This document shows, piece by piece, positions 1,929 through 37,462 of a stretch of 64,000 nt of DNA. The position numbers and the translations under genes are program-made. This stretch comes from an uncultured Spirochaetales bacterium. Its GTDB lineage: Bacteria > Spirochaetota > Spirochaetia > JABMQR01. Location: NCBI GenBank assembly GCA_964567895.1, contig CAZMOX010000004.1, forward strand, positions 560 through 64,559, given 5' to 3'. Position 1 is the first letter of the stretch, and the number at the start of each line of letters is the position of its first letter. The notes beneath the pieces are model-generated. The model had not been told where the DNA came from and did no database searches. It saw only the letters and a list, made by a program, of their open reading frames with translations.

Positions 1929-1966
1929 TAAAATAACAAAATATACCAATATAGGTGGAAAGTACT

Positions 1967-4230: not shown

Positions 4231-4590
4231 AGCTTGTTTTAATGAGAGCGTAGTCAAGTATAAATATATGAATATTTTCGACTATAAAGTAGAATATTCT
4301 GATAAGCTTTCACCTTTTTGAAGCAATCATATATACTATTATTATACGACAGTTCGTGATGTTCATGAACTGATTTGTAAACTTATCAAAGTAATATAAT
4401 ATAAGTAAATAACAACATTTAGCTTGAGTGAATGATGGGCTATTATTGGTAGTTTTACTGTGGTTTTCTGCTGGTTTTGTCTTGGTGGCTATATGTAAAT
4501 ATATTAACGTAAAATTAGAAATATTTTAGTTGACTTGCTGTATAAGCCATGCTACCATTGACTACGTTATCATAATAAATGGAGGACTAC

Positions 4591-5892: not shown

Positions 5893-5906
5893 AATCTTAT
5901 ACATCG

Positions 5907-5950
5907 GGATTCAGTCTGTTGTGATGCAGACTGAATCCTGCTTTTCTTTT
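5907..5950 (+). terminator. Rho-independent terminator after SBP gene
   Basis: GGATTCAGTCTG-ttgtgatg-CAGACTGAATCC perfect 12-bp stem followed by tgcttttctttt. Confidence 0.7.
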
Positions 5951-5996
5951 ATAATATACCTATTGATGAGGTTCCGTTAAATTACCTGCATGGAAA

Positions 5997-6018
5997 CGAA
6001 GGGGTTAGCCCCTTTTTG
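5997..6018 (+). terminator. Second weak terminator/attenuator between SBP and permease genes
   Basis: AAGGGG-ttag-CCCCTT followed by TTTTT. Confidence 0.3.
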
Positions 6019-6149
6019 GATGTTTGTAATTCGTTATAAAATAAAAACTCAATTTCACTAGTTCAAAAATTTTGAATCCATGTAAACATGGGTATGAATT
6101 ACTCTCAGTCAGGTGTTACTATCTTTTTTAAGGACATTAAATAATAGTT

Positions 6150-8044: not shown

Positions 8045-8185
8045 GGAAATTAATTTTGAAAGAACCTTACATGAGAGTATGAAGCTGTTTTTGAGTAAGC
8101 AAGAAGATATAATTATGACATTAAGTTCAGCCTGCAGTATTCGGGCTGTACCTATTTTTATTTGATAAATATTCAGGAGATGATA

Positions 8186-9332: not shown

Positions 9333-10388
9333 ATGGCTGAACAAATATTTTTTAAAGTAGAGAAATTGCAGAACTATCTTTCGGAAATGTACTCGAAAGC
9401 AGGTTTATCAAAAGAGGATGCGGATATTTGTGCGGAATGCACAATACTGACAAACCTTTGGGGAGTAGATTCCCATGGGGTGCTCAGGACTCCTGCCTAT
9501 ATAAAAAGAGTGCTTAAGGGTGCTGTGAATAAGAGTGCAAACCCTTTTTACATAAAAGGAGAAGGTGGACCACTAGCCATTATGGATGGCGATGCCGGAA
9601 TGGGCTATGTAGTTGGTTCCAGGGTAATGGATGCTGCTGTAGCAAAAGCGAAAGAGTTTGGGTTCGGAATGATTGTGGTTAAAAACAGTAATCATTTTGG
9701 AGCTGCCTCTTTGTATACACGTCGGGCTGCAGATGCCGGTATGTTGGGCATTGTGACAACAAATGTTATACCAAATATTGGAATGCCGGGAAATATAAAA
9801 CCAGTATCCGGGAATAATCCATTAGCTTTAGCAGCACCTATTGGTAAACCCTATCCATTTTCATTGGATATCTCTATGAGTGCTGTTGCCGGGGGGAAGC
9901 TTCTTCTGGCTCAAAAAAAAGGTGACAAAATTCCGACCACGTGGTCAATAGATAAAGAAGGAAACCCAACTGATGATCCATTTAAAGGATTTGAAGGGAT
10001 TTTACTTCCCACCGGAATGCACAAAGGTCTGGGAATGTCTTTCTTCATAGATATCATAACTGGTGTTATGAGTGGAGGACCCTTTTTACAGAACATAAAG
10101 AGTATGTACAAGCATGCAGATGAGCCGAGTTTGACATCGCATGTCTTTTGTGTTATCGATCCGGAATTCTTTATGGAGAAAGAAGAGTTTTCCGGGAGAA
10201 TGGCTCAGTGGGTTGATATGATTAAATCTACGCCAATGGCTGCCCCGAAAACTGAACAGATAATTCCCGGAGAGATTGAGTACAACTGTGAGATGGCAAG
10301 AAGGAAGTCGGGGATTCCTTTACCTGCTGAACTGGTTGAAGATCTCAAGGCACTGGAAGAACAATTTAAAATGGATAACAGACTGTAA
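9333..10388 (+). CDS. Ldh2-family (malate/L-lactate/sulfolactate/ureidoglycolate dehydrogenase-type) NAD(P)-dependent 2-hydroxyacid dehydrogenase
   Basis: Ldh_2 hallmark VVKNSNHFGAASLYTRRAADAGMLGIVTTN and overall length. Confidence 0.8.
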   Translation: MAEQIFFKVEKLQNYLSEMYSKAGLSKEDADICAECTILTNLWGVDSHGVLRTPAYIKRVLKGAVNKSANPFYIKGEGGPLAIMDGDAGMGYVVGSRVMDAAVAKAKEFGFGMIVVKNSNHFGAASLYTRRAADAGMLGIVTTNVIPNIGMPGNIKPVSGNNPLALAAPIGKPYPFSLDISMSAVAGGKLLLAQKKGDKIPTTWSIDKEGNPTDDPFKGFEGILLPTGMHKGLGMSFFIDIITGVMSGGPFLQNIKSMYKHADEPSLTSHVFCVIDPEFFMEKEEFSGRMAQWVDMIKSTPMAAPKTEQIIPGEIEYNCEMARRKSGIPLPAELVEDLKALEEQFKMDNRL

Positions 10389-10434: not shown

Positions 10435-11349
10435 ATGAAAAAACAGACTGAATTTAAGTTAAACCAGAGAGATTCTGTGTGGTTTCAGGAAAATAGTGCA
10501 CATGTAGTTGTTGAATATGCAAAGAATGTTTGTGATATTGCAATCCTTCCAATTGGAGCAATTGAACAGCATTCAGCACATGCGCCAACAGGAATGGACA
10601 CCTATAATGCAATTGGAATTTCAGAGAAAGTGGCTGAGAAAACCGGTGCCATGCTTCTTCCCTGTCCCATGTACGGATCGCATCCCCATCACCATTGGGG
10701 AATGCCCGGAACAATTCCATTAACCTATGAAACACACATTGGACTTCTGATGGATATCATCAGAGGAGCTGCTGTATCCGGTTACAATAAGTTCTTAATC
10801 ATTTCGGCTCATGGTCAAGTTTCCTCTACCATAGTTGCAACACATAAATTGGGTATTGAAGGATTATTTACCATCTCATCAACATGGTACGACTTTCTCC
10901 GGGATGATAAAACAGTTCTTGAAGACTATATGTGGCATGCTGATGAAGCAGAGACTTCTGTTGGTCTCTATCTCTATCCGCAGTTTATAAAGATGGAACT
11001 GGCTGAGGCTGGTTACGGCACTCCTCTTATTGATTCAAAATGGAAAATTGCTCCGGGTCAGGCAGCAAAGGCAGGGACACTCTACCACTTTGAAGGAACC
11101 TTTGCTCTTCCGGAAAAAGATGATCTTGATAATGGCGTTATCGGAGATCCTACAAAAGCAACTTACGAAAAAGGTAAGGGTGTTATTGAAGGTGTTGTAA
11201 AGCATTATGCAGGACTTGTTGATGAAATCAAAACAAAATACCCCTGTGGAATAAATCCGCTTGGATTTAGAAACCCGGCTGGTTATGCAGGTACTTCAGA
11301 TATTGTATATGACAAAGATCATGACAGCAAAGGGCAGTTAATTAAATAA
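10435..11349 (+). CDS. Creatininase-family (creatinine amidohydrolase / ArfB / inosose-hydrolase-type) metal-dependent hydrolase
   Basis: ILPIGAIEQHSAHAPTGMD and His/Glu metal-ligand pattern. ~300 aa, longer than canonical creatininase. Confidence 0.7.
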   Translation: MKKQTEFKLNQRDSVWFQENSAHVVVEYAKNVCDIAILPIGAIEQHSAHAPTGMDTYNAIGISEKVAEKTGAMLLPCPMYGSHPHHHWGMPGTIPLTYETHIGLLMDIIRGAAVSGYNKFLIISAHGQVSSTIVATHKLGIEGLFTISSTWYDFLRDDKTVLEDYMWHADEAETSVGLYLYPQFIKMELAEAGYGTPLIDSKWKIAPGQAAKAGTLYHFEGTFALPEKDDLDNGVIGDPTKATYEKGKGVIEGVVKHYAGLVDEIKTKYPCGINPLGFRNPAGYAGTSDIVYDKDHDSKGQLIK

Positions 11350-11461: not shown

Positions 11462-12883
11462 ATGAACAAACCAAGAATTGGTATTATCACTTTCGGTGAT
11501 AACAGAGATCCTGAATGGAATAAAGTATTTAAGCAAATGACTGTTCCCCGGCATGATCTTGCTGTGGAGATGCTTAAAACTCTTCCTATAGAGGTAATAT
11601 CGGTAAAAGAACCTGCAAGATCACGAGAAGAGATTAATAATCAGGTTGATTTGCTGAAAAATGAAGGGATTGATGTATTTATTGCGCATACTCCATGCTG
11701 GACTTCACCCAATTTGGTGGTGCACGGTGTTCAACGAATGGAGATGTTTACCATCATGCTTGGGAATCGTGACATGTCAACACATGGCTGTGTCGGTTTA
11801 TTTGGTGCTGCAGGTGCTCTTTCACAGATTGGACAGAGTCACAAACGAATTCGTGTGGATTATACCGAAGAGATGTATAGGGAGAAGCTGTTGCCGATAC
11901 TTCGTGCATCAGCTGTTAAAAACCGTCTTAAAGGTTCAGTTATGGGCCACTTCGGGGGACGATCGATCGGTATAGATACTGCGACCTTTGACCCGATGGG
12001 ATGGCGGAAGCAGTTTGGGGTTGATGTTGAACATATTGATCAGGTGGAGATTCTTCGCCGAGCAGAATTGGTTTCACAGGAACGTATTGACCGGATGCGG
12101 GAATGGATTGAAAAGAATGCAAAAGAAGTTCTCTATAATGATGATAAATTCACCCCAAAAAAATTTGATTTTCAACTTGCCTGCTATATTGGTACAAAAG
12201 ATATTTGTAAGGATCTTGGTTTGGACTTTACCGCAATTAAGTGTATGCCGGAACTTTCAAATAGTTATGTCCCTCAATGTATGACAGCTACATTTCTTCC
12301 GGACAATTTTGATGGCGAAGAGGGTGAAAAAGAGGGAATTGTCATGGCTTGTGAGGCTGATGGTGATGGGGCTCTTACCCAGCAGATTCTTAAAATTGTT
12401 TCTGGCGGGATGCCGACTCTATTCGCTGATGTCAGCCATATTGATGATAGTGAAAAGATTGTCTACTGTGTGAATTGCGGCGCTCTTTGTGCATGGTATG
12501 CAGGCCGAAACGAAAACCCTAAAAAAAATCTTAATCTCATAACTATTAAACAATCTATCCGGCCAGGCGGTGCAGCTATTTCAGGTTTTTTTGCATCACC
12601 AGGGCCTATACAATTAGCGCGACTCTATCGGGTGGATGGGAAATACCGAATGGCAATTATCCCTGCAGAAGCAGTAACGCCGAATAAAGATACTGTGGAG
12701 AAATTTATTGAAGCCCGGGGCTCTCATCAGCTTCCCACACTGTTTGCTAAAGTGAATTTTTCTGTAGAAGATTTTGTTGATGAATATGGTTCTAACCATA
12801 TTTCAGGTGTTGCCGGGAATTACACGAAAGAGCTGATTGAAGTATGTAAGATGCTTGATATTGAGCCGGTAGTGTTTTCATAA
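11462..12883 (+). CDS. L-fucose/L-arabinose isomerase family (aldose-ketose isomerase) protein
   Basis: MACEADGDGALTQ catalytic-region motif, ~470 aa, fucose-isomerase-like C-terminal domain. Confidence 0.7.
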   Translation: MNKPRIGIITFGDNRDPEWNKVFKQMTVPRHDLAVEMLKTLPIEVISVKEPARSREEINNQVDLLKNEGIDVFIAHTPCWTSPNLVVHGVQRMEMFTIMLGNRDMSTHGCVGLFGAAGALSQIGQSHKRIRVDYTEEMYREKLLPILRASAVKNRLKGSVMGHFGGRSIGIDTATFDPMGWRKQFGVDVEHIDQVEILRRAELVSQERIDRMREWIEKNAKEVLYNDDKFTPKKFDFQLACYIGTKDICKDLGLDFTAIKCMPELSNSYVPQCMTATFLPDNFDGEEGEKEGIVMACEADGDGALTQQILKIVSGGMPTLFADVSHIDDSEKIVYCVNCGALCAWYAGRNENPKKNLNLITIKQSIRPGGAAISGFFASPGPIQLARLYRVDGKYRMAIIPAEAVTPNKDTVEKFIEARGSHQLPTLFAKVNFSVEDFVDEYGSNHISGVAGNYTKELIEVCKMLDIEPVVFS

Positions 12884-12895
12884 GGATTCAATAGG

Positions 12896-14035
12896 ATGAA
12901 TAGAAGAGAAATATTTACTGCAGCTATGAACCATCAGGAAACAGGCCGCGTACTTGTTGATCAGGGAAAACAGGTCGGTTCGATACATAAATTCGGATAC
13001 GCCAGGATACGCGAGATGATGGGACTTCCTCCTAAAGAGGGCATTATTCTTGATAGAATGAGTCAGTGCGTTATCTCCGATGAAGATTTGCTTGAAGCCT
13101 GGGGAATTGATTTTAGATGGTTAATTCCGAACTGGGTACAGATTGAGGAGATTGATGAAGATCATTATAGAAATCTATTTGGTGTTCTATTCAGGAATTC
13201 CGGAGACTATTTTTCTATATATGATGCTCCCATGAAAGGAAAAGAGATTGATGTTCTAGATAGCTACAAGTGGCCGAATCTGCACGATACTGCAATGTTT
13301 GCAGGGTTAAGAGATCGTGCAGAGGATTTACACAACAATACTGACTATGTAATTGGAGCAGATGGGATCAAGGGCGGAATTTTCCAGACAAGTCTTGAGT
13401 TGAGAGGCTATGATCAACTCTATATGGATTTTTACCTTGAACCGGATTTTGCTCATGCACTACTTGATAAAGTCACTGAATGCTATAAAGAGATGTATAC
13501 GGATTACATGCGTGAAGTGGGGGAGTTTGTACAGATTGTCTATCTCACAGATGATTTTGGCAGTCAGAATTCCCTGTTGATGTCCGGAGACATGTGGGAA
13601 ACATTCATGAAACCCCGTCAGGCAGATCTCATTGCACATATCAAATCTTTAGCACCACATGTGAAGGTAATGTTCCATACAGATGGATCGGTACTTCCTA
13701 TTATCGATGGAATGATCGATATGGGTGTTGATATCCTTAATCCTGTACAGACTTCTGTAGAGGAGTTGAAGGATACCCATGCTTTGAATGAGCAATATGG
13801 TGAAAAAATTGCATTTCACGGTGCTATTGATGTACAGAATGTTATGGTGAATGCAACTCCTGGCCAGATTCGGGAAGAAGTTAATCTACGTCTGTGCGAT
13901 CTGGGAAAAGGCGGTGGCTATATTATTGCTACCTGCCATAATATTGGTTACGACATACCTCCTGAGAACTTAAAAGCATTTTATGCTGCAGTTAAGGAGT
14001 TTTCTGCATATCCGTTAAAACGATTGGGAGAGTAG
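12896..14035 (+). CDS. Uroporphyrinogen-decarboxylase (URO-D)-like TIM-barrel protein (MtaA/CmuA-like family)
   Basis: C-terminal pattern VDILNPVQ...IAFHGAIDVQNVM...GGGYIIATCHNI is typical of the UroD/MtaA family. Confidence 0.65.
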   Translation: MNRREIFTAAMNHQETGRVLVDQGKQVGSIHKFGYARIREMMGLPPKEGIILDRMSQCVISDEDLLEAWGIDFRWLIPNWVQIEEIDEDHYRNLFGVLFRNSGDYFSIYDAPMKGKEIDVLDSYKWPNLHDTAMFAGLRDRAEDLHNNTDYVIGADGIKGGIFQTSLELRGYDQLYMDFYLEPDFAHALLDKVTECYKEMYTDYMREVGEFVQIVYLTDDFGSQNSLLMSGDMWETFMKPRQADLIAHIKSLAPHVKVMFHTDGSVLPIIDGMIDMGVDILNPVQTSVEELKDTHALNEQYGEKIAFHGAIDVQNVMVNATPGQIREEVNLRLCDLGKGGGYIIATCHNIGYDIPPENLKAFYAAVKEFSAYPLKRLGE

Positions 14036-14042: not shown

Positions 14043-14828
14043 ATGAAAATTACAAATGATAACTATGTGAAAAAACTGCTGAAAGAGGGGAAGAAAGTTA
14101 CAGCAGCCTGGGCACAGGCTGCAAGTCCTATTACCGCAGAAATATTGGGAGATGCGGGATTTGATGCCGTCATGATAGATATGGAACATGGTCCTGGAGA
14201 TATCATGATGCTTATCAATCAGATCAATGCCTTGAAAGGTCAACCGGCTGTTCCTTTTGTACGGGCACCCTGGAATGATTTTGTTCAGCTGAAAAAGATA
14301 CTTGATGCCGGAGTCTATGGGGTACTTGTTCCGTATGTGAATAGTGCTGAAGAAGCAGAAGCAGCGGTTAAAGCAGTAAGATATCCAACTGAAGGAATCA
14401 GGGGAGTTGCAGGTAGTCCAAAAGCGCCGCACTTTGGGAACAACTCTATGGAATATATGAAAAAGGCAAATGAAGAGATATTTCTCATGACTGCAGTAGA
14501 GACTCCGGAAGCCGTAGCAAATCTGGATGAATTGCTTAAAGTTGAAAAACTTGACGGCATTTTTATCGGTCCAATGGATCTTGCAACGAGCATGGGGTAT
14601 TTTGGAAATCCTCAGCATCCTGAAGTGCAGAAAGCTATACAGGAAGTTGAAGAAAAAGTATTTGCCAGTAACAAAATTCTCTCTACTATTGCCGGTTCCT
14701 GGGAAGATGCAAAAACGAAATACGATAGAGGATATCAGCTGCTGTTACTCATGTCTGATACCGTAACACTTAGCAAGACAGCCAGAGCTCTAACCGGCTC
14801 ATTTGCAGATGCCTATCCCGGACGATAA
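14043..14828 (+). CDS. HpcH/HpaI-family class II aldolase (2-keto-3-deoxy sugar acid aldolase type)
   Basis: GFDAVMIDMEHGPGD and GIFIGPMDLATSMG motifs of the HpcH/HpaI/YfaU family. Confidence 0.8.
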   Translation: MKITNDNYVKKLLKEGKKVTAAWAQAASPITAEILGDAGFDAVMIDMEHGPGDIMMLINQINALKGQPAVPFVRAPWNDFVQLKKILDAGVYGVLVPYVNSAEEAEAAVKAVRYPTEGIRGVAGSPKAPHFGNNSMEYMKKANEEIFLMTAVETPEAVANLDELLKVEKLDGIFIGPMDLATSMGYFGNPQHPEVQKAIQEVEEKVFASNKILSTIAGSWEDAKTKYDRGYQLLLLMSDTVTLSKTARALTGSFADAYPGR

Positions 14829-14875: not shown

Positions 14876-15889
14876 ATGATAAAAGTAGGAGTAGCCGGAT
14901 ACGGCGTAATAGGACAGAGGCTTGCCGATGGAGTTGCATGGCAGAAAGATATGGAGTTGGTTGGAGTTGCAGATGTGGCTCCCACATTACCAATACGTGC
15001 ACTTTATGAGAGTGGAATGCGGTACAAACTGTATACTGCAGTACCTGAGAAGAAAAATCTGCTCACTGATTTAGGTATTCCTGTAAGCGGAACCCTTGAA
15101 GATCTGGTGCAGGAAGTCGACATCATACTTGATGCTACCAGTGCCGGAATTGGAGCTAAGAATAAAGAGCTATACCAAAAATATAATACCAAAGCTATAT
15201 TTCAGGGCGGTGAGAAAAATGATGTAGCAGATGTTTTTTTCCATGGATATGCAAACTATGAAAAAGGTGTTGGAGCTGACTACTTAAAACTTACCAGCTG
15301 TAATACAACCGGATTGATTCGTGCAATTGATGCAATTGACCGTGCAGTTGGTGTGGTGAAGACAGCAATTACGATCATTAGACGTGTTGCAGATCCCGGC
15401 GATTATCATCGTGGACTTACTAATGCCCTACAGGTTGATAAGGCTCCCAGCCATCAGTGTCTTGATTTAATGACAATAATGCCGCATGTGGATGCAACCG
15501 GTATACTGATTCATACACCGGTAACCCATGGACATATTATTACTCCGGTTGTTAGTACCAAGAGTAAAATAAACAAAGAAGAATTGTTGGCAATTTTTAA
15601 TGCACACCCCAGGATCAAAGTGGTACGGATTGAAGATGGGTTTCTTGGTAATGCTTCTTTATTTAAGTATGCCAGAGATCTTGGGAATAAACGCGGTGAC
15701 ATGTATGAAGTTGCTGTTTGGGAAGAGTCTATTGTCAATAGTGGAGATGACATCATGTTTGCTATGAATATCCCGCAGGAGTCTGTCGTTATTCCTGAGA
15801 CTATGGACGGCATACGTGCAGCAATGAAGATGCAGTTGACACGTGATGAAGGAACAGCCGAAACAAATAAATATCTTTGGATGAAATAG
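14876..15889 (+). CDS. gap: Archaeal-type (type II) glyceraldehyde-3-phosphate dehydrogenase homolog
   Basis: 337 aa. Type-II GAPDH signatures: N-terminal GxGxIG Rossmann, active-site TSCNTTGL, and overall similarity to archaeal GAPDH. Confidence 0.8.
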   Translation: MIKVGVAGYGVIGQRLADGVAWQKDMELVGVADVAPTLPIRALYESGMRYKLYTAVPEKKNLLTDLGIPVSGTLEDLVQEVDIILDATSAGIGAKNKELYQKYNTKAIFQGGEKNDVADVFFHGYANYEKGVGADYLKLTSCNTTGLIRAIDAIDRAVGVVKTAITIIRRVADPGDYHRGLTNALQVDKAPSHQCLDLMTIMPHVDATGILIHTPVTHGHIITPVVSTKSKINKEELLAIFNAHPRIKVVRIEDGFLGNASLFKYARDLGNKRGDMYEVAVWEESIVNSGDDIMFAMNIPQESVVIPETMDGIRAAMKMQLTRDEGTAETNKYLWMK

Positions 15890-18436
15890 ATGGAAAAGCG
15901 AACTGAACATATACCTGAGGAAGTTTCAGGCTCCCCGGGATTTCTCCCGATGGAGAGCTTCGAGGTGAAGGGGAAACGAGTCTTGCTGCGGCTGGATGTC
16001 AACTCCCCGATCGACCCGGAGACCAAACGGATCGTAAATGAGAACCGGATGGATAAAAGCCTGCCGACCCTGAAGTGGCTGCTCAATCAGGGTGCGAAAG
16101 TGGCCGTAATCGCCCATCAGGGCGATACGCTGGATTACCAGAATCTGATTCCTTTAAGTGAACATGCAGAAAAGCTGAGTGCAAAACTGGGACGGGAAGT
16201 TGCCTACATCGATGATGTCTGCGGCCCTGCTGCCCGGGAAGCTGTTGCAGGTTTGTCCGATGGACAGTGTATTATCCTTGGTAATCTACGGTATTTGTGT
16301 GAAGAGATATCCACCTTTGAGGATGCAGTGAAACTGCGCCCCGAAGAGATGCTGAACACCTGGTTAGTGCGTTCTCTTGCACCCCTATTCGATCTCTACA
16401 TAAATGATGCCTTTGCTGCAGCTCATCGGAATGCACCGAGTATGGTAGCTTTTCAGGAACTGCTTCCCAGTGCAGCCGGACCGCTGCTCTATAAGGAAGT
16501 AAGTGCGCTTACAAAGGTGATGAAATCACCTGAGCATCCAGCCGTTTTTGTTCTAGGCGGGGCCAAAATATCCGACGCCTTTGGGATGATGGAACAGGTT
16601 CTGGCCAACGGGACAGCCGATACGATTCTGACAATCGGGGTAACCGGAGAAATATTCCTGATAGCCGCAGGGTATGACTTAGGCTCTGCAGTACAGAAAT
16701 TCATAGAAGACCGGCACCTGGGAGTTTTTATTACCGAGGCAAAGAAGTACCTGAAATCCTATCCGGGACATATTGTACTGCCCGAAGATCTGGCCTATGG
16801 GGACGGAGGTTTGCGTAAAGAAATTCCAGTCTCAGAGCTGCCGGTTGATGAACTGTTTATGGATATAGGGAGTAATACGATACAAAGCTATAAAGAGATT
16901 ATTGCTAATGCAGGAACCTTGTTTGTGAACGGACCGGCAGGAGTATTTGAAGATGGATTGTTTGCCAAAGGGACGGAAGAGTTGTGGAAAGCGATTGCAG
17001 CTTCAAACGGATACTCGGTAGTAGGCGGTGGAGATAGTGTAAGTGCGGCAGCGAGGTTTACCGAGCTTTCAGACTACAGCTATGTCTGTACCGCAGGCGG
17101 TGCAATGGTACGGTTTCTTTCGGGGAAAAAGCTTCCGCTGATTGAGGCGATGGAGAAAGCGGGAGGCAAGGGAGCGGAGACGGGAGACGGGAGGATGAAG
17201 ATAAACCTTCCGTATAAGAGAGATGCTATACAGATAGATATACCGGCAGAACGGTTGGCCGGGGTGCTTGAGCCTAATGAGGTAGTGAGTGCTGAGGATC
17301 CGATCGCTGTTGTTCGCAAATCTTTTTCTCACGTTTATGGGACTCAGAGTTTTGCCGAATTTCTGGAAGCACCCGGTGAACTGCTGGTTATCGTAAATGA
17401 CGGAACAAGGCCGACTCCTACCCGGTTTGTTATCGAGGCCATAGCCGATGAGCTGGAAATTGCCAAAGCAACATTCATGATCGCTACCGGAGTACACCGC
17501 GGACCGACAGCAGAAGAGTATGAATTTATCTTTGGCAGCCAATATACTCGATTCGCGGAACGCATTCTGGTGCATGATGCCCGCAAGGATGAGATGGAGT
17601 ATCTGGGAGTCTCAAAGAACGGCACCGAAATGTATCTGAATAAAAAAGGAGTAGGGTTTGACAAGATCCTGATCATTGGGTCAGTAGAGCCGCACTACTT
17701 TGCAGGCTATACCGGAGGCCGGAAAGGATTGCTTCCGGGGATAGCTTCCTATCATACCATTGAACAGAACCACAAACATGCACTTTCTCCGAAGGCCTGT
17801 GCCTTGGCGCTGGAAGGCAATCCGGTGCATGAGGATATGATTGATGCGTTGAAAGTGGTGAAGAATAACCTATTCACGATAATGACGGTATTGGACAAAC
17901 ATCAGGAGATCTATGGGGTAACATCCGGGGATATTTATGCAGCCTTTTCCGGAGCAATTGGCAAAGCGAATGAGGTATTTGTGGCACCGATAGCAGAGAA
18001 GGTTGATGTAGTAGTAACGTGTGCAAAGTATCCTATGGATGTTGATTTGTATCAGGCACAGAAAGCGATAGAGAATGCGAAGCTGGCACTGAAGCCCGGC
18101 GGAATACTGATACTGGTGGCAGCGTGTCGGGACGGGATAGGGGAGAAAGCTTTTAGCGATCTGCTGAGTTCCTGTGAAACTAGTGAAGCGGTTTTGGCAA
18201 AGATAGAGCAGGAGTATAAGCTGGGGTATCACAAGGCGGGAAAGATAGCCGAGGTGAACCAGTGGGCGCAGATATGGGCGTATACGGAATTAGCAGATGA
18301 GACATTGGAGCAGATATTTCTGCATCCGGTTAACAATTTGCAGGAAGCGATAGATAAGGCCTTACGGGAGAAGGGTGATAGAGCGAAAGTGCTCTTTCTG
18401 CCTGACGGCAGTGTCACTGTCCCTCAATTATCATAA
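15890..18436 (+). CDS. pgk: Fusion protein: archaeal-type phosphoglycerate kinase (N-terminal ~410 aa) + LarA-like nickel-pincer-nucleotide 2-hydroxyacid racemase/epimerase domain (C-terminal ~420 aa)
   Basis: PGK motifs LLRLDVNSP, YINDAFAAAHR, VLGGAKISD, NGPAGVFE, GGGDSVSAA. The C-terminal LarA/DUF2088 motifs are IVNDGTRPTP, ATGVHRG and GSVEPHYFAGYTGGRK. The 848-codon ORF is uninterrupted. Confidence 0.8.
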   Translation: MEKRTEHIPEEVSGSPGFLPMESFEVKGKRVLLRLDVNSPIDPETKRIVNENRMDKSLPTLKWLLNQGAKVAVIAHQGDTLDYQNLIPLSEHAEKLSAKLGREVAYIDDVCGPAAREAVAGLSDGQCIILGNLRYLCEEISTFEDAVKLRPEEMLNTWLVRSLAPLFDLYINDAFAAAHRNAPSMVAFQELLPSAAGPLLYKEVSALTKVMKSPEHPAVFVLGGAKISDAFGMMEQVLANGTADTILTIGVTGEIFLIAAGYDLGSAVQKFIEDRHLGVFITEAKKYLKSYPGHIVLPEDLAYGDGGLRKEIPVSELPVDELFMDIGSNTIQSYKEIIANAGTLFVNGPAGVFEDGLFAKGTEELWKAIAASNGYSVVGGGDSVSAAARFTELSDYSYVCTAGGAMVRFLSGKKLPLIEAMEKAGGKGAETGDGRMKINLPYKRDAIQIDIPAERLAGVLEPNEVVSAEDPIAVVRKSFSHVYGTQSFAEFLEAPGELLVIVNDGTRPTPTRFVIEAIADELEIAKATFMIATGVHRGPTAEEYEFIFGSQYTRFAERILVHDARKDEMEYLGVSKNGTEMYLNKKGVGFDKILIIGSVEPHYFAGYTGGRKGLLPGIASYHTIEQNHKHALSPKACALALEGNPVHEDMIDALKVVKNNLFTIMTVLDKHQEIYGVTSGDIYAAFSGAIGKANEVFVAPIAEKVDVVVTCAKYPMDVDLYQAQKAIENAKLALKPGGILILVAACRDGIGEKAFSDLLSSCETSEAVLAKIEQEYKLGYHKAGKIAEVNQWAQIWAYTELADETLEQIFLHPVNNLQEAIDKALREKGDRAKVLFLPDGSVTVPQLS

Positions 18437-18459: not shown

Positions 18460-19119
18460 ATGAAGAAGAAAGTAGGAGTAATACATACCTTTCTCTATTC
18501 AGTAGAAGCACTTAAAGAACTCTTTGAAGAGTTAATTCCCGAAGTGGAAATGATTAATATCATAGATGACTCACTTTTAAAAGAAGTATTGGCAAATGGC
18601 GGACCTACCCCGGCAGTAGTACGAAGAATATGCAACTATGCACAGGAACTTGAGAACCTTGGATGTGATATAATTCTTAATCAGTGCTCATCAGTCGGAG
18701 AAGCTGCAGATATAGCACAGAAGCTGATATCAATACCCTACATCAAAGTTGATTCACCTATGGCCTGTGAAGCAATACGGCTGGGGAAAAAGATTGGTAT
18801 GGTCGCAACTGCATATACTACACTGGGACCATCAGTACGTCTTGTAGAGACAACAATCAAAGAGTTGGGTTCTGATGCCGTGGTGAACGAATGTTTTGCT
18901 GAGGGTGCATATGATGCACTGCTGAATGAGGGAAACAAAGCAAAGCATGATGAAATATTAATGGCTACCATTGATAAAGCGTGTGCTGAAAACGATGTAG
19001 TATGTTTGGCACAGGGTAGTATGATTAGTTTGCTCGAGAAATGTAAAGATAAACCTGTTCCTGTAATACACAGTTTCCGTAGCGGCGTAGCTCAGATTCG
19101 TGATATACTAGGGCTCTAA
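18460..19119 (+). CDS. Asp/Glu/hydantoin racemase family protein
   Basis: ~220 aa with a Cys-containing two-subdomain pattern (ILNQCSS...VVCLAQGSM) typical of Asp/Glu racemase-like enzymes. Confidence 0.65.
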   Translation: MKKKVGVIHTFLYSVEALKELFEELIPEVEMINIIDDSLLKEVLANGGPTPAVVRRICNYAQELENLGCDIILNQCSSVGEAADIAQKLISIPYIKVDSPMACEAIRLGKKIGMVATAYTTLGPSVRLVETTIKELGSDAVVNECFAEGAYDALLNEGNKAKHDEILMATIDKACAENDVVCLAQGSMISLLEKCKDKPVPVIHSFRSGVAQIRDILGL

Positions 19120-19141: not shown

Positions 19142-20176
19142 ATGGCAAAGGTTCTGCAGAATAAACGCGCAACATCAAAAGATGTAGCCAGAGAGGCAGG
19201 AGTCTCACAATCAACTGTTTCCAGAGTGTTCAACAGCAGCGGTATCAGTGTCTCTGATGCGAAAAAGCAAAGGATATTTGAGACTGCTGAGAGGTTGGGA
19301 TACAGACCCAGTCAGATAGCCAGATCCCTGAACTCGCAGAGTACTAAAATTATTGGTTTTGTTCTTAGTGAATTTGAGAATGTATTTTATATGAGAGTTC
19401 TCTCACTCTTTACAAAAAAGCTGCAGGAGGCCGGATATTCGGTAATGATTTTCAATCTGAATGATGATCATGAAGTAGAGAAAAATCTCAAAACAGCACT
19501 TGAATATCAGGTTGCTGGTCTGATAATTACTTCCGCAACCCTTTCCTCACCATTAGTTGAGGGCTGTCTCCGATATAAGACACCGGTCTTTCTTTTTAAT
19601 CGAATTAGTGATGGACTGAATGTAAATACGGTGTGCTGTGATAATATTGATGGTGGAAAAACTATAGCAAATTATCTGATAGATCGCGGTCATCAAAAAT
19701 TGGTCTATATTTCTGGTGAAGAAAAATCTTCAACCAACCGTGACAGGAAAAAGGGATTTATTGAGCAGTCGAAAAGCAGGGGGTTGGCAGAAGTTGTTGT
19801 TCTCCCCGGGAATTATAAGTATGAAGCAGGATTTGCTGCTGCCGATACATTAACTAAGGAAAAAGTAGAGTTTGATGGTGTTTTTTGCGCTGCCGATGCA
19901 ATGGCATTGGGTTTTATTGATTATATAAAATATAGAACCGAACTGAGAATACCTGAAGATATCTCTATCATAGGGTTTGATGGAATTCCGCTGCATAACG
20001 AGATCCATTACCAGTTAACTACTTTCAAACAACCGATGGAGAGAATGGTTGATAAAACTATAGAAGGACTGCTTGATAAGATTAAAAATTTTAGGACAGA
20101 TGCAGTGCATTATCTCTTTTTTGGCCAAATCATGGTACGTGGGTCAGTTGCAGATAGAAATAAAGAGTTAAGGTAA
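19142..20176 (+). CDS. LacI family transcriptional regulator
   Basis: N-terminal HTH ATSKDVAREAGVSQSTVSRVFN plus a periplasmic-binding-protein-like sugar-binding fold. Confidence 0.85.
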   Translation: MAKVLQNKRATSKDVAREAGVSQSTVSRVFNSSGISVSDAKKQRIFETAERLGYRPSQIARSLNSQSTKIIGFVLSEFENVFYMRVLSLFTKKLQEAGYSVMIFNLNDDHEVEKNLKTALEYQVAGLIITSATLSSPLVEGCLRYKTPVFLFNRISDGLNVNTVCCDNIDGGKTIANYLIDRGHQKLVYISGEEKSSTNRDRKKGFIEQSKSRGLAEVVVLPGNYKYEAGFAAADTLTKEKVEFDGVFCAADAMALGFIDYIKYRTELRIPEDISIIGFDGIPLHNEIHYQLTTFKQPMERMVDKTIEGLLDKIKNFRTDAVHYLFFGQIMVRGSVADRNKELR

Positions 20177-22628: not shown

Positions 22629-22970
22629 ATGACACAAAAACAAATAAAAGAATCATTGCCTTTAGATACTTCTGATATTATATCCAGGCTTGGCGAAAGG
22701 ATAAGGATTGCCAGAAAACGGCGAAGATTTTCAAGCGAAGTAATGGCAAAAAGAATGTTCGTTTCAAGAAAAACCCTTTTTCGTTTGGAAAAAGGTGATC
22801 CCGGTATCTCTCTTGGAGTCTTTGCATCTGCATTATGGGTTCTGGGACTTGAAAGGGAGTTATTAAAAATCGTAGATCCCGAGAAGGATAAAGTCGGAAT
22901 TTTCCACGAACGTCAACAACTCTCTAAACGTATCCGTAAGAAATCTACGGATAACAAGTTGGATTTTTAA
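22629..22970 (+). CDS. hipB: XRE-family HTH antitoxin (HipB-like)
   Basis: HTH region LGERIRIARKRRRFSSEVMAKRMFVSRKTLFRLEKG. It lies immediately upstream of a HipA kinase gene. Confidence 0.7.
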   Translation: MTQKQIKESLPLDTSDIISRLGERIRIARKRRRFSSEVMAKRMFVSRKTLFRLEKGDPGISLGVFASALWVLGLERELLKIVDPEKDKVGIFHERQQLSKRIRKKSTDNKLDF

Positions 22971-22987
22971 TAATAATGGAATAAAAT

Positions 22988-24217
22988 ATGGCAATTAAAG
23001 AAATTATTGTTTTTGTTTATCTACCGGGAGAACCGGTTGCTGTTCCAGCGGGTATATTTACTCACGACTCTGATTTAAGAGTGGGGAATTTTGCTTACGG
23101 GCACCGTTACCTTGAACGAGACAATGTCATTCCTGTCGATCCTATTTCACTGAAATTGGGAACCCTTCCTGAAGCAGTAACAACAAATGCCGGATTGTAT
23201 GGGGCTTTTCGTGATGCTTCACCGGATTACTGGGGCAGATTGGTGATTGCAGCTGAACAGAAAACGGTATCTGAGAACATTTCAGAAATTGATTTTCTAT
23301 TGGGTGCAAATGCAACACGGGTCGGGAATCTTGACTTTAGGGACAATCCTGATTCTCCAGAACCAAAGCTGGAACCTCCTGTGTTTAATCAGCTTTCAAA
23401 TATAATTCGTGCTGTAGAAAATATCGAAGCTGGAAAAACAGCAGAAGAACATATACTGCATCTACTCCGGCAGGGAAGCAGCATGGGGGGAGCACGTCCA
23501 AAATGCACAGTCGAGTGGGATGATTCTCTTTGGATTGCTAAATTCCCGGCAAAAGGAGATACGGTAAACATTCCTGGAATTGAGTATGCTACTATGAAAC
23601 TTGCTAAACGATGCGGAATTGATGTGCCGAAAGTAAGAGTGAAGTCTATAGCAGGTAAAGATGTATTTCTTATTCAGCGTTTTGACCGGGAAAGAGCTGC
23701 GGCTGGATGGCTAAGAAAAGGTTTTATCAGTGCACTTTCTTTAATGCGGCTTGATGAAAAAGAGAGACTTAAATGGAGTTATTTGTCAATTGCAGCTTTT
23801 ATGCGTCAATATTGTTCCACGCAGGATATTTCCCAACTGTTTCGTAGAATAATTTTCAATATTCTGGTACGGAACACCGATGACCATCCCAGGAATCATG
23901 GGTTTCTTGTAACTGAAAATGGATTATCTCTTTCACCCGCATATGATATTGTTCCTGAACTGACACCAATAGGTGTGTGTACTGGTTTTAACCTTGCGAT
24001 GACCGTTGGTAAAACAGGGCGCGAAGGAACCCTGGAGAATGCCATGAGTTCCTGCGAACAGTTCGGACTTTCAGGACAACGGGCAAAAGAGATTCTCGGG
24101 CAAATGATCGAAACTGCACATAACTGGGAAAATTTTTTTGTCGAGTTAGGTGTTATGGAAAGAGAAATTAAACTCCTTGCTCCCAGTTTCGAACGATGTC
24201 GTGAAGTAATTAAATAA
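22988..24217 (+). CDS. hipA: HipA-family serine/threonine kinase toxin
   Basis: HipA motifs GGARPKCTV, NTDDHPRNHGFL and SPAYDIVP. Confidence 0.85.
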   Translation: MAIKEIIVFVYLPGEPVAVPAGIFTHDSDLRVGNFAYGHRYLERDNVIPVDPISLKLGTLPEAVTTNAGLYGAFRDASPDYWGRLVIAAEQKTVSENISEIDFLLGANATRVGNLDFRDNPDSPEPKLEPPVFNQLSNIIRAVENIEAGKTAEEHILHLLRQGSSMGGARPKCTVEWDDSLWIAKFPAKGDTVNIPGIEYATMKLAKRCGIDVPKVRVKSIAGKDVFLIQRFDRERAAAGWLRKGFISALSLMRLDEKERLKWSYLSIAAFMRQYCSTQDISQLFRRIIFNILVRNTDDHPRNHGFLVTENGLSLSPAYDIVPELTPIGVCTGFNLAMTVGKTGREGTLENAMSSCEQFGLSGQRAKEILGQMIETAHNWENFFVELGVMEREIKLLAPSFERCREVIK

Positions 24218-24435: not shown

Positions 24436-27141
24436 ATGAATTCACAGATAACTATTACCATAGATAATAAACATATTACTATTCCTGAGGGAACCACGAT
24501 ACTGAACGCAGCTAAACAGTTGGATATTGATATACCGCATCTCTGTAAAGATGATCGACTGACTTACACAGGAGCCTGTAGGCTCTGCTTAGTGGAGATA
24601 GAGGGGCAGCCAAAGCTGCAGACCTCCTGTTCACGCCTTGCCGAAGAAGGCATGGTGATCCAGACAGAGACAAAAGAGATTAAAAAGTTACGAAAGATTG
24701 TTCTTGAACTCTTTATTGCAGAGCATCGCCTCTCCTGTACAACCTGTGACAAGGATGGTGATTGCCTGCTGCAGGACTACGCATACCGATATCATATCAA
24801 TGAGTATAAATTTCCTCATCTGGAACAAAAAATAACCAGCATGAATTATACAGATAGAGAGAAAGCTTTTGTCTATGATCCTTCAAAATGCATTCGCTGC
24901 GGGCGTTGCATTAAAATTTGTCGTGAAGTTCAGGGAGTTGAGGCGATTGCTTTCCAGAAACGTTCTCATGAAGTGATGGTTACCACAGGGTTTGATGTTC
25001 CTTTGAAAAATACCGTTTGTGAAACCTGCGGGCAGTGTGTGGGAACATGCCCAACTGGTGCCCTCTACGCCAAGGCGGCTAAAGGAAAAGGACAGGCGAA
25101 AAACCTGAAAAAAACCCGGACAACCTGTACCTATTGCGGGGTAGGGTGCCAGCTTGATCTGAATGTGAGCAGGCAGACCGGAAAAATCGTTATGGTTACT
25201 ACCGAAATCGGATCAATCCCCAATGATGGAAATACCTGTGTGAAAGGCCGCTTCGGCATGGATTTTATTCATTCAGAAAAACGGCTTACGAAGCCGCTTA
25301 TCAGGGAGAATGGAGAGTTTAGGGAAGCTGAGTGGGAGGAAGCACTGAATCTTGTTGCTGATAAATTCAATACCATTAAAGAGCAATTTGGTTCCGACTC
25401 ACTTGCCGGCCTTAGTTCAGCAAGAACTACCAATGAAGAAAATTATGTCATGCAGAAATTTATCCGTGCTGCTGTAGGTACAAACAATATAGATCACTGT
25501 GCACGTCTTTGCCATGCATCTACGGTTGCCGGACTTGCCAAGGCTTTCGGCAGCGGTGCTATGACAAATAGTATAGAGGAGATCAAACGAGCCTCTCTGA
25601 TTTTTGTTATAGGATCGAATACCACGGAATGCCATCCTGTAATCGGCATAACTATTCGGCAGGCAGTTGCCTCGGGGAAAACAACACTGATCGTAGCAGA
25701 TCCCCGTAAAATATCTCTTACAGAAGATGCTTCTCTGCACCTTCAGCACAAACCGGGTACAGATGCAGCTTTAATTAATGCCATGATGCACGTGATCCTC
25801 TCTGAGGGTCTTGAAGATAGAGAGTTTATTGAGAGCCGGACTGAAGGGTTTTCAGAGATTACAGAGTCATTAAAACGCCATCCTCCTGAATTTGCAGAAA
25901 AAGTTTGCGGAATTCCTGCGGATGATATCCGGAAAGCCGCACGGCTTTTTGCTAAAGCAGAAACAGCCTCAATTATCTACTCAATGGGAATCACTCAGCA
26001 TACAACAGGAACTGATAATGTTCTTGCGCTGGCAAATCTTGCCATGATGACTGGGAATATCGGGAAAGAGTGTGCAGGAGTAAATCCATTGCGAGGACAG
26101 AATAATGTGCAGGGTGCCTGTGATATGGGTGCTTTGCCTGATGTTTACAGTGGGTATCAGAAAGTTGCTAATACTGCAGCAACTAAGAAATTTGAGAAAG
26201 CCTGGAATGTGAGCTTAAGTAATACACCGGGTTTGACCGTAATCGAAATAATGAACAACGCAGGTGAAGGCTCAGTGAAAGGACTCTATATTGTGGGTGA
26301 AAACCCTATGTTGAGTGATCCTGATATTGCCCATGTGGAAGAGGGCTTGAAAAACCTCGACTTTCTGGTGGTACAGGACATATTTCTTACAGAAACAGCA
26401 CTTTTAGCCGATGTGGTTCTTCCTGCAGCAAGTTTTGCTGAGAAGGAAGGAACCTTTACCAATACCGAGAGACGTGTTCAGCGTGTCCGGAAAGCTGTTG
26501 AATCCCCGGGAGAAGCACGTGAGGATTGGGATATCATCTGTGATCTGTCGCGGAGAATGGGATATCCTATGTCATATAACTCAGCAAGTGAAATTCAGGA
26601 TGAAATAGTACGAATTACTCCTATCTATGGGGGGATTGACTACGATAGAATTGAAGAGGTTGGAATCCAGTGGCCCTGTCCTGACCGTAACCATCCTGGA
26701 ACAAAATTTCTCCATAAAGGAGAGTTCTCCCGTGGTAAAGGGAAATTCCATGCTGTTTCCTATCTTCCTCCAACGGAGATGCCTGATAATGATTACCCCT
26801 TTATTCTGACAACTGGCAGAATGCTTCAGCACTGGCATACCGGTACCATGACAAGAAAGAGTGTTGTTCTGCATGATTTGGTGCCTCATGGAGCTCTTGA
26901 GCTGCATCCTGATGATGCCGAACTCTATGGAATAACGAAAGGTGATACTCTATCGGTAAGTTCGCGCCGAGGAAACATAACTGTTCCTGCAAATATTACG
27001 GATAAGGTGCGCCAGGGGACTGTCTTTATGGCTTTTCACTTTCATGAACATCCAGCAAATGCGCTTACTATTGCAGCCCTGGATCCCATAGCAAAAATCC
27101 CGGAATTTAAGGCCTGCGCGGTAAAGGTAGAAAAAGCATAG
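24436..27141 (+). CDS. fdhA: Formate dehydrogenase alpha subunit (NuoG-like 2Fe-2S/4Fe-4S N-terminus + molybdopterin oxidoreductase), cysteine type
   Basis: N-terminal ferredoxin cysteine clusters. Mo-bisPGD domain with HCARLCHAST at the Sec/Cys position. There is no in-frame TGA. Architecture is YjgC/YrhE/FdhF-like. Confidence 0.85.
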   Translation: MNSQITITIDNKHITIPEGTTILNAAKQLDIDIPHLCKDDRLTYTGACRLCLVEIEGQPKLQTSCSRLAEEGMVIQTETKEIKKLRKIVLELFIAEHRLSCTTCDKDGDCLLQDYAYRYHINEYKFPHLEQKITSMNYTDREKAFVYDPSKCIRCGRCIKICREVQGVEAIAFQKRSHEVMVTTGFDVPLKNTVCETCGQCVGTCPTGALYAKAAKGKGQAKNLKKTRTTCTYCGVGCQLDLNVSRQTGKIVMVTTEIGSIPNDGNTCVKGRFGMDFIHSEKRLTKPLIRENGEFREAEWEEALNLVADKFNTIKEQFGSDSLAGLSSARTTNEENYVMQKFIRAAVGTNNIDHCARLCHASTVAGLAKAFGSGAMTNSIEEIKRASLIFVIGSNTTECHPVIGITIRQAVASGKTTLIVADPRKISLTEDASLHLQHKPGTDAALINAMMHVILSEGLEDREFIESRTEGFSEITESLKRHPPEFAEKVCGIPADDIRKAARLFAKAETASIIYSMGITQHTTGTDNVLALANLAMMTGNIGKECAGVNPLRGQNNVQGACDMGALPDVYSGYQKVANTAATKKFEKAWNVSLSNTPGLTVIEIMNNAGEGSVKGLYIVGENPMLSDPDIAHVEEGLKNLDFLVVQDIFLTETALLADVVLPAASFAEKEGTFTNTERRVQRVRKAVESPGEAREDWDIICDLSRRMGYPMSYNSASEIQDEIVRITPIYGGIDYDRIEEVGIQWPCPDRNHPGTKFLHKGEFSRGKGKFHAVSYLPPTEMPDNDYPFILTTGRMLQHWHTGTMTRKSVVLHDLVPHGALELHPDDAELYGITKGDTLSVSSRRGNITVPANITDKVRQGTVFMAFHFHEHPANALTIAALDPIAKIPEFKACAVKVEKA

Positions 27142-37421: not shown

Positions 37422-37462
37422 CTAAAAAATTCACATCCATCAAAAACTTCTGACGTTAATTA

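Follow-up and report, generated by a model that had tools for sequence, protein, structure and literature searches.

The window analyzed here, 64,000 nucleotides from an uncultured Spirochaetales bacterium (contig CAZMOX010000004.1), carries at positions 15890..18436 of the + strand a single open reading frame (ORF), uninterrupted over 848 codons from ATG to stop, in which a phosphoglycerate kinase (PGK)-like domain (residues 1-424, 15890..17161) is joined by an 11-residue linker to a LarA domain (residues 436-848, 17195..18436). Immediately upstream on the same strand, with a stop codon that abuts the ATG of the fusion, lies a homologue of type II glyceraldehyde-3-phosphate dehydrogenase (GAPDH-II, or GAP2; 14876..15889). 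The original prediction, made from the sequence of the window, had described the ORF as a fusion of a complete archaeal-type PGK with a LarA-like racemase that would channel a 3-phosphoglycerate-like 2-hydroxyacid. We find that the fusion is in all likelihood real and recent, and that the conserved unit is its neighbourhood. In the reading that we favour, GAPDH-II would act as a phosphorylating D-malic semialdehyde dehydrogenase, the PGK-like domain as an acyl-phosphate:ADP kinase releasing D-malate and ATP, and the LarA domain as a nickel-pincer nucleotide (NPN)-dependent 2-hydroxyacid racemase converting D-malate to L-malate.

The PGK-LarA fusion and its origin

Family models recognized both halves of the protein, as the original prediction had expected. 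The N-terminal half matches the full PF00162 model (residues 22-413, model positions 2-379 of 379, E 2e-107; 360 bits against a gathering threshold of 27) and has the archaeal PGK of Pyrococcus horikoshii as its closest structure (2CUN, E 5e-78), in agreement with its description as a complete PGK of the archaeal type. The C-terminal half matches Lar_N (residues 442-635, E 4e-49, 167 bits) and LarA_C (residues 705-840, E 2.5e-18, 67 bits), each above its Pfam cut-off, and contains all of the LarA motifs quoted for it (IVNDGTRPTP, ATGVHRG and GSVEPHYFAGYTGGRK). The opposite strand of 15890..18436 is stop-rich and holds no comparable frame.

Three further contigs, from different samples, encode exactly this 848-aa protein or a one-residue variant of it (P838S). 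Their nucleotide identity to the window is 100% for L045 (JGI 3300031657), 99.94% for L046 (ENA ERZ27316679; 13 mismatches, all away from the junction), and 99.98% for L047 (JGI 3300025628; 2 mismatches, likewise elsewhere). Because the junction is identical in these three other metagenome assemblies, an assembly or base-calling artefact is unlikely. The notion that the organism truly has two genes, which faulty assembly or sequencing has merged, draws on the two separate genes found in every other lineage and on the position of the junction inside a short tandem repeat, but it is scarcely credible given four contigs from different samples and assemblers that share the junction while carrying single-nucleotide differences elsewhere, and given that a 7-bp duplication is atypical of short-read error. 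We are therefore very confident that the fusion is real and that it is recent.

A scan of one genome per species (185,579 species-representative genomes) yielded 44 loci with a close relative of the PGK, and frame analysis found PGK and LarA as one ORF in none of them. The 120 best relatives of the LarA half, drawn from 5.8 billion proteins, all lack a PGK domain; they are stand-alone proteins of 359-455 aa, at most 95% identical to it. An exhaustive search of cluster representatives also returned no fused PGK-LarA protein, although such a library can hide fusions, the 90% cluster of the fusion itself being represented by an unfused protein (P0161, a stand-alone LarA, 95% identical). Two proteins matching in two stretches (P0094 and P0109) were rejected as candidates, being PGK-PGK tandems, and so were the 2.5-kb tblastn spans in other genomes, each of which holds a stop or a change of frame. 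The database survey proposed in the original prediction thus confines the fusion to one population.

The linker (GGKGAETGDGR, residues 425-435, 17162..17194, + strand) is a translated, purine-rich former intergenic or overlap region, and its DNA is still Shine-Dalgarno-like (GGAG/GGGAGG) ahead of the LarA ATG at 17195. Within it lies a perfect tandem duplication of the 7-mer GGAGACG (two copies, 17176..17189, + strand), the event that placed PGK and LarA in one frame. When one copy is removed in silico, the upstream frame ends in ...AETGG*, with a TGA that overlaps the LarA ATG. A single GGAGACG and separate, out-of-frame genes characterize the nearest relatives, L050 (LarA 95% identical) and L051 (89%). 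At L036, PGK and LarA stand in the same frame, split by a TGA, and the spacer likewise measures 11 codons; in L006-L009, from Sediminispirochaeta, the stop codon of PGK and the start codon of LarA share bases (ATGA); and in Clostridia the two genes are separated by an intergenic spacer or stand in another order. L004 is the species representative closest to the window: its operon proteins are 84-98% identical to those of the window, and exactly the LarA segment is missing. At this LarA-less site (L004:11260-11320), the end of the PGK gene is a GATA-repeat stretch (GAGAGATAGATAGATAGATAGG) that looks like a deletion scar.

The joined genes are normally adjacent and translationally coupled, and the junction sequences indicate that the fusion is a very young strain- or species-level accident that arose when slippage in a purine-rich junction duplicated 7 bp. 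The fusion gives 1:1 stoichiometry and proximity, with no sign of evolution for channelling. It does not serve as evidence of evolved channelling: it stems from a 7-bp duplication in one population, and relatives whose LarA is 89-95% identical keep separate genes. Judging from the retained ATG at 17195 and the Shine-Dalgarno-like sequence, free LarA might still be made. The locus cleanly illustrates how slippage that duplicates 7 bp can fuse two translationally coupled genes.

The conserved neighbourhood and its substrate sites

Across species, it is the gene neighbourhood that is conserved, and not the fusion. About 38 of the 44 loci have GAPDH-II as the gene just before this PGK subfamily; in L018 and L028 it stands at a distance of one or two genes, and in a few loci it could not be placed. 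The GAPDH-II/PGK loci span Spirochaetia, Clostridia, Negativicutes, Desulfobacterota and Gammaproteobacteria. To count the other neighbours, all ORFs of 45 non-redundant loci were clustered, and the clusters were named by NCBIfam and Pfam models. A split transketolase occurs in 23 of the 45 loci, LarA in 21 (22 with L026), iol genes in 13, malic enzyme in 9 (8-9 of which also have LarA), an HpcH aldolase in 7, and a tartrate/D-malate decarboxylating dehydrogenase in 2 (L021 and L022), while a LacI regulator accompanies the module in 22. The NCBIfam scores, with cut-offs in brackets, are 460 (355) for IolG, 409 (290) for IolE, 928 (715) for IolD and 472 (470) for the decarboxylating dehydrogenase; the IolB-like gene scores 87, below its cut-off of 205. 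The transketolase and malic enzyme clusters were likewise identified by family models. Organisms that carry the operon with iol genes and transketolase include Bacilliculturomica massiliensis (Marseille-P3303, L028) and Sediminispirochaeta smaragdinae. In L023 the order is ABC transporter, IolD, IolG, IolE, LacI, LarA, GAPDH-II, PGK, transketolase N-subunit (TK-N), transketolase C-subunit (TK-C), IolB and malic enzyme. No recognizable IolC, IolJ or IolA was found in complete operons such as L023 and L022, and the module loci are not full canonical iol operons (IolG/E/D/B plus IolC/J/A). In some loci, the D-malate/tartrate decarboxylating dehydrogenase stands in for LarA and malic enzyme.

Partners of this neighbourhood are joined elsewhere too. 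In L026 (6100-8544), from an uncultured Clostridium metagenome-assembled genome, an 814-aa frame links a malate-racemase-type LarA to GAPDH-II (Lar_N, LarA_C and Gp_dh_C domains), and L049 (130-2229; P0002) encodes a 699-aa PGK-transketolase_N fusion, followed by TK_C, LarA and an aldehyde:ferredoxin oxidoreductase. A further candidate, P0007, in which GAPDH-II is joined to PGK, was rejected as a reliable fusion: its PGK is truncated and its transketolase short, and the locus looks degenerate. A 996-aa frame in L030 (7011-10001) combines a molybdopterin enzyme of the aldehyde-oxidase/xanthine-dehydrogenase type with GAPDH-II, and is either a real fusion or the result of a missed stop or frameshift.

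The module can also be multicopy. In the Spirochaetia genome OY782041.1, at least four GAPDH-II/PGK pairs (L011, L013, L014 and L025) are spread over different sugar operons. Between its transketolase/iol-type and HpcH-type operons, identity is 96-98% for the GAPDH copies and 86-94% for the PGK copies, and the GAPDH figure suggests that these genes were recently duplicated or underwent gene conversion. In L027, L033, L041 and L044, a GAPDH-II/PGK/transketolase cassette lies beside a deoxyribose-phosphate aldolase and a phosphomutase, in operons that have no iol genes. More than one pathway probably feeds into the cassette.

Aligned to the PGKs of Thermotoga maritima and P. horikoshii, the PGK-like domain keeps the phosphoryl-transfer and nucleotide motifs (LDVNSP, NENR, GGAK, NGPAGVFE and GGGDS), which include the Asp/Asn of DxN, Arg38 and Lys215 of GGAK. 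Its substrate side is altered. Asp79 (codon 16124..16126, + strand) takes the position of Arg65 of human PGK1, which is Lys in P. horikoshii, and the resulting motif AHQGDTL-D, with Asp for the Arg/Lys of HLGR/HQGK, is present in all 42 complete sequences of the subfamily. In the same 42 sequences, LLENxRF has become LLGNLRY, with Glu replaced by Gly, while archaeal-type PGKs at 38-44% identity keep HQGR or HQSR. We take His62, Arg65, Arg122 and Arg170 of human PGK1 to form the basic patch that binds the 3-phosphate; equivalents of the His, of Arg122 and of Arg170 are present, but the equivalent of Arg65 is Asp79, so the patch is incomplete. The NCBIfam release of June 2026 has no specific model for this PGK subfamily.

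GAPDH-II shows the same combination of intact catalysis and altered substrate site. It scores 408 bits for the NCBIfam type II GAPDH model (cut-off 185), its best structural match is the enzyme of Methanothermus fervidus (1CF2, E 1.5e-73), and it keeps Cys140, His219 and Arg167/168, the motifs SCNTTG and THGH being conserved in 38 of 38 sequences. In all 38, however, His194 is replaced by Gln (PSHHGPD becoming PSHQ(A/C)(L/V)D), so that the canonical substrate site is not retained. This His194(-Gly195), given as substrate-binding in UniProt/HAMAP annotation, is presumably phosphate-contacting. Lys33 is likewise Asp in 38 of 38, a change which suggests the use of NAD rather than NADP.

The transketolase of the module deviates at a corresponding position. 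In its C-subunits (L001, L005, L011, L012, L015, L017, L022, L023, L026, L027, L031-L035, L040, L041 and L043), Asp stands in place of His416 of human transketolase, which we assume to be a phosphate-contacting position; G(S/T)D(P/A)G is found for the canonical (T/S)H(A/C)G, and FNGG or MNGG for GEDG. The split transketolases of the module form a divergent subfamily, and these patterns suggest an altered substrate pocket.

In the LarA half, Arg507, His536, His602, Lys612, His628 and Gln724-Lys725 align with the catalytic and cofactor residues of the solved LarA and Mar2 structures, as the original prediction required of its Lys/His residues; the roles of the two catalytic His, of the NPN-tethering Lys, of the Ni-binding His, and of the equivalents of Arg75 and Lys298 have been described (PMC7583248). 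Its best structural match is the malate racemase Mar2 (6D6Z, E 1.5e-71), followed by lactate racemases. For malate recognition by Mar2, Desguin et al. proposed Tyr172, Lys173, Gln293 and Lys351, the last of these for the second carboxylate (PMC7583248). Three of these are kept, as Tyr603, Gln724 and Lys782, in both clades of module LarAs. Among the Clostridial module LarAs, 8 of the 8 tested pass the cut-off of 500 for the malate racemase family LarAH6 (535-577 bits), and the LarAs of the Spirochaete clade score 384-396 for LarAH6, their best-matching family (396 for both L036 and L006). The LarA of the window thus appears, from these sequence comparisons, to belong to a Spirochaete clade that is sister to the LarAH6 malate racemases.

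The proposed D-malate pathway and alternative substrates

We propose that the module runs a carboxylate-for-phosphate copy of a familiar reaction sequence. In the inositol operons, IolG, IolE, IolD and IolB would make 5-dehydro-2-deoxy-D-gluconate, a non-phosphorylated ketose acid which, viewed from its ketol end, corresponds to xylulose-5-phosphate with -CH2-COO- in place of -CH2-OPO3. This compound holds the D-threo ketol needed by transketolase, and, reasoning from its known structure, the 2-hydroxyaldehyde that remains is D-configured, which is why the acid formed from it would be D-malate. In the first step, transketolase would cleave the compound to D-malic semialdehyde (OHC-CHOH-CH2-COO-), the carboxylate analogue of D-glyceraldehyde-3-phosphate; in the operon of the window, an HpcH-family aldolase would take the place of transketolase. 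GAPDH-II would then convert this aldehyde and inorganic phosphate to D-malyl 1-phosphate, phosphoryl transfer to ADP by the PGK-like domain would yield D-malate and ATP, and the LarA domain, with its nickel-pincer cofactor, would invert C2 to give L-malate, which malic enzyme or central metabolism could take up. D-Malate needs either a racemase and an L-malic enzyme or a D-malate decarboxylating dehydrogenase, and exactly these two alternative gene sets are found. On balance, and judging from sequence comparison and gene context, we lean towards D-malic semialdehyde, D-malyl phosphate and D-malate as the intermediates, with LarA as a malate racemase. The broader scheme, in which anaerobic bacteria copy the route from xylulose-5-phosphate through glyceraldehyde-3-phosphate (GAP) and 1,3-bisphosphoglycerate to 3-phosphoglycerate and gain ATP and D-malate, and then pyruvate, seems to us evenly poised between right and wrong.

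The operon of the window differs from the inositol type. On the + strand, it comprises a CUT1-type ABC sugar transporter (4579-8044: binding protein 4579-5892, permeases 6150-7013 and 7013-8044), a SnoaL-like protein (8162-9193), an Ldh_2-family 2-hydroxyacid dehydrogenase (9333-10388), an IolN-like creatininase-family hydrolase (10435-11349), a FucI-like isomerase (11462-12883), a URO-D/MtaA-like protein (12896-14035) and an HpcH/HpaI-family pyruvate aldolase (14043..14828; Pfam HpcH_HpaI, with 234 bits for GarL and 224 for HpaI, both below the cut-off), then GAPDH-II and the fusion, a protein of the Asp/Glu/hydantoin-racemase family (18460..19119) and, as the last gene, a LacI-family regulator (19142..20176). 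The same operon type with the same upstream gene order recurs in L004, L006, L016, L025 and L036. The Asp/Glu-racemase gene is present in most HpcH-type operons (L010 being without it) and is absent from those of the transketolase type. In operons of the window's type, the HpcH aldolase is the likely source of the aldehyde. The Sediminispirochaeta operon L006, which is of the HpcH type, has malic enzyme directly after LarA, and in L025, also of the HpcH type, GAPDH-II is 96-98% identical to the transketolase-type copies of the same genome. Because of this malic enzyme and this GAPDH-II copy, we extend the D-malate reading to the window's operon.

Several observations weigh against the D-malate reading. 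All of its substrates and products are deduced from gene context and residue patterns, and the phosphate-contacting roles that we assign to the PGK1, GAPDH-II and transketolase positions are presumed. The LarA of the window scores 384 bits for LarAH6 (NF052593), its best NCBIfam match, against a cut-off of 500, and its identity to Mar2 is only about 35%; the position of Mar2 Lys173 is Phe604, and Phe in both module clades, and the motif reads GGRK where Mar2 has GGHK. No larB, larC or larE was found by a Pfam scan among the ORFs of at least 150 aa in the 64-kb window, and the operon of the window contains no transketolase and no iolG/E/D/B. LarA is dispensable in the otherwise identical HpcH-type operons L004, L016 and L025, where the Asp/Glu-racemase-like gene is the more constant of the two across HpcH-type operons. 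The best NCBIfam match of the Ldh_2 protein is L-sulfolactate dehydrogenase, weakly (257 bits, cut-off 500), and that of the isomerase is the sulfoquinovose isomerase SftI, also weakly (78 bits, cut-off 700); in the Clostridial loci L002, L024 and L030, a TauE/SafE (TSUP) anion permease directly follows LarA (for example, L024:4212-5021). Finally, the compound from which a pyruvate aldolase could release malic semialdehyde would have to be a C7 diacid (4,5-dihydroxy-2-oxoheptanedioate), for which no source is evident. Conceivable origins of the substrate in the HpcH type are a C7 cyclitol acid whose ring the IolN-like hydrolase would open, or an inositol route of the Thermotoga type.

The missing C7 precursor is among the points in favour of another aldehyde. 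In the HpcH-type operon of the window, the aldolase could free D-glyceraldehyde, L-lactaldehyde or tartronate semialdehyde, which the GAPDH-II/PGK pair would turn into the acid and ATP, with LarA as a glycerate or lactate racemase. Cleavage of 2-keto-3-deoxy sugar acids by HpcH-family aldolases does yield aldehydes of this kind, the GarL and HpaI scores of the window enzyme are about equal, LarA is optional in these operons, and members of the LarA superfamily racemize glycerate and lactate (PMC11770544). Set against this are the malic enzyme directly after LarA in the orthologous L006 operon and the near identity of GAPDH-II between HpcH-type and transketolase/iol-type operons within one genome. 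LarA moreover has the equivalents of Mar2 Gln293 and Lys351 where lactate racemases have hydrophobic residues, and the two retained arginines of the PGK anion patch fit an anionic tail. We regard this alternative to D-malate as unlikely.

The GAPDH-II/PGK pair could instead be an extra set of ordinary lower-glycolysis enzymes that process GAP released by transketolase or aldolase, with LarA as an unrelated neighbour. The score of GAPDH-II above the type II cut-off, the intact catalytic residues of both enzymes, and the participation of GAP in transketolase reactions all speak for this. It is nevertheless improbable, in view of the invariant, subfamily-specific changes at substrate-site positions of both enzymes and of the three pairwise fusions and the stop/start overlaps that tie LarA, GAPDH-II, PGK and transketolase together. 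Triosephosphate isomerase, phosphoglycerate mutase and enolase were not recognized among the annotated neighbours, and at least four copies lie within LacI-regulated catabolic operons of one genome. We are fairly confident that the pair is a specialized catabolic module and not part of glycolysis.

A sulfonate version of the pathway would start from sulfolactaldehyde, derived from a sulfosugar, which GAPDH-II and PGK would convert to sulfolactate and ATP, LarA then racemizing sulfolactate. Sulfolactaldehyde is likewise an anionic GAP analogue, transketolase-based sulfoglycolysis is known, and the weak sulfolactate dehydrogenase and SftI matches, as well as the TauE/SafE-family permease after LarA, would fit. 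The former two score far below their cut-offs, however; sulfoquinovosidase, sulfo-lyase and sulfite-handling genes were not seen in the window or the loci; and the transketolase-type operons combine iolG/E/D/B with malic enzyme or D-malate dehydrogenase and with LarAs that pass the malate-racemase model. A sulfonate analogue, which the original prediction had offered as a possible racemized substrate, is on these scores not supported, and we give the sulfonate version little credence.

The other substrate named at the outset fares worse still: a true 3-phosphoglycerate kinase whose LarA partner racemizes D/L-3-phosphoglycerate, channelled to or from 1,3-bisphosphoglycerate, is very improbable. 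In its favour, the PGK domain is complete, keeps the motifs for phosphoryl transfer and nucleotide binding as well as the equivalents of R122 and R170, and is covalently attached to a LarA with an intact active site. Against it, the phosphate-binding Arg/Lys is Asp in every complete subfamily member and the neighbouring Glu is Gly, the partner GAPDH-II is altered at His194, the kin of LarA are malate racemases with the second-carboxylate residues of Mar2 kept, the adjoining genes encode malic enzyme, D-malate dehydrogenase, transketolase and Iol proteins and not glycolytic enzymes, and the two domains were joined by accident through a 7-bp duplication. We also know of no pathway that needs L-3-phosphoglycerate. 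A phosphoglycerate racemase is not supported. What stands of the first interpretation is that kinase and racemase are functionally linked and that LarA most likely acts on the 2-hydroxyacid released by the kinase; what is not supported, given PGK Asp79, GAPDH-II Gln194 and the malate-racemase kinship of LarA, is a 3-phosphoglycerate-like identity for that acid.

Other window genes and known systems

Outside these subjects, the window holds three paralogues with a C-terminal SnoaL-like (NTF2-fold) domain (23-715, 1955-3112 and 8162-9193) that flank the sugar transporter; the two complete genes have long N-terminal regions with no Pfam match, and near them lie an AraC regulator (778-1632) and a 316-aa protein (3122-4072) that matches neither Pfam nor NCBIfam. 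Downstream of the operon we found an HTH/HipA-like toxin-antitoxin pair (22629-24217), a molybdopterin oxidoreductase that resembles formate dehydrogenase and carries a 2Fe-2S/4Fe-4S module at its N terminus (24436-27141), followed by MobB- and MobA-like genes (to 28318), and Pel-like exopolysaccharide genes (34093-39319) comprising a DUF3492 glycosyltransferase (PelF-like), PelG and a DUF2194 protein. A modification set for elongation factor P (EF-P) that resembles EpmB/EF-P/EpmA extends over 42179-45490, with a lysine-2,3-aminomutase-like radical SAM protein (42179-43264), EF-P (43859-44422, - strand) and a short protein like class II lysyl-tRNA synthetase (44501-45490, - strand). About 30 kb from the operon, at 48698-50103, lies a two-subunit enzyme of the class I fumarate hydratase/tartrate-dehydratase type, which could link malate to fumarate metabolism.

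Several known systems resemble parts of the module. Sulfo-transketolase sulfoglycolysis (SqwGH) also uses a split transketolase on a non-phosphorylated anionic ketose in catabolic operons of anaerobes, but it starts from a sulfosugar, yields sulfoacetaldehyde or isethionate, and has no GAPDH/PGK step and no LarA. The Thermotoga PGK-triosephosphate isomerase (PRK13962) likewise has an N-terminal PGK in a two-enzyme polypeptide that joins pathway neighbours; it is, however, conserved in its lineage and unites two glycolytic enzymes, whereas the fusion of the window unites a PGK paralogue with a racemase in one population. With the archaeal glycolytic pair (1CF2 and 2CUN), the module shares catalytic residues and the chemistry of a thiohemiacetal that becomes an acyl phosphate, whose phosphate passes to ADP; unlike that pair, the module is bacterial, multicopy, placed in LacI-regulated catabolic operons, and altered from Arg/Lys to Asp in PGK and from His194 to Gln in GAPDH. 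As to the Bacillus subtilis pathway IolG-E-D-B-C-J-A, its first four steps (IolG, IolE, IolD and IolB-like) adjoin the module in 13 loci, and transketolase, GAPDH-II, PGK, LarA and malic enzyme are found instead of the IolC kinase, the IolJ aldolase and IolA.

For the racemase, the closest system is Mar2/LarAH6 of Thermoanaerobacterium thermosaccharolyticum (6D6Z, PMC7583248), which has the same fold, the same NPN-binding and catalytic residues and, like the module LarAs, an adjoining malic enzyme. The LarA of the window differs from it in its GGRK and HYF motifs (GGHK and HYK in Mar2), its PGK-like fusion partner, and its GAPDH-II/PGK operon. A natural route from malic semialdehyde through D-malate to pyruvate is known from the carnitine pathway of Acinetobacter baumannii, and a D-malate/tartrate decarboxylating dehydrogenase homologous to its decarboxylating D-malate dehydrogenase sits in L021 and L022; its malic semialdehyde dehydrogenase is a non-phosphorylating aldehyde dehydrogenase that yields no ATP, while the module would conserve this energy and would usually exit through racemase and malic enzyme (PMC11353897). 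In the synthetic malyl-phosphate pathway to 2,4-dihydroxybutyrate, malate is converted through its acyl phosphate to malate semialdehyde; that pathway is engineered and reductive, runs through L-malyl 4-phosphate, on the carboxyl distal to the hydroxyl group, and uses a mutated aspartate kinase and aspartate semialdehyde dehydrogenase, and its intermediates are treated as non-natural (PMC5481828).

No description of a PGK-LarA fusion was found in the LarA superfamily papers or in open-access full text, in line with the original prediction, the only trace being a line in a supplementary table where COG0126 adjoins 17% of "group 4" LarA homologues; an earlier description elsewhere may exist. Neither a transketolase-dependent inositol route nor a natural malyl phosphate was found in the open-access literature, and in the NCBIfam release of June 2026 the GAPDH of the module is still named as an ordinary type II GAPDH. 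Protein families and types of reaction are established ones; what is probably new are the substrates and the pathway, and the module is widespread in bacteria and apparently undescribed.

PGK and phosphorylating GAPDH are usually viewed as single-purpose glycolytic enzymes. If the D-malate reading is true, a widespread pair of GAPDH/PGK paralogues adapted to a carboxylate analogue would add a new case to the known forms of substrate-level phosphorylation, with the first natural non-glycolytic substrates for such a pair, and would open a new energy-conserving branch in the fermentation of inositol and other substrates. Compared with the canonical iol route, we infer that one ATP would be saved and one gained, with pyruvate rather than acetyl-CoA and dihydroxyacetone phosphate as the product. 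This would account for a gain of ATP by fermenting Spirochaetes and Clostridia on inositol-type substrates, as opposed to the ATP cost at IolC, and would give the malate racemases of the LarA superfamily a physiological role in the rescue of D-malate. It would also correct the automatic labels glyceraldehyde-3-phosphate dehydrogenase, phosphoglycerate kinase and lactate racemase that the matched sequences now carry.

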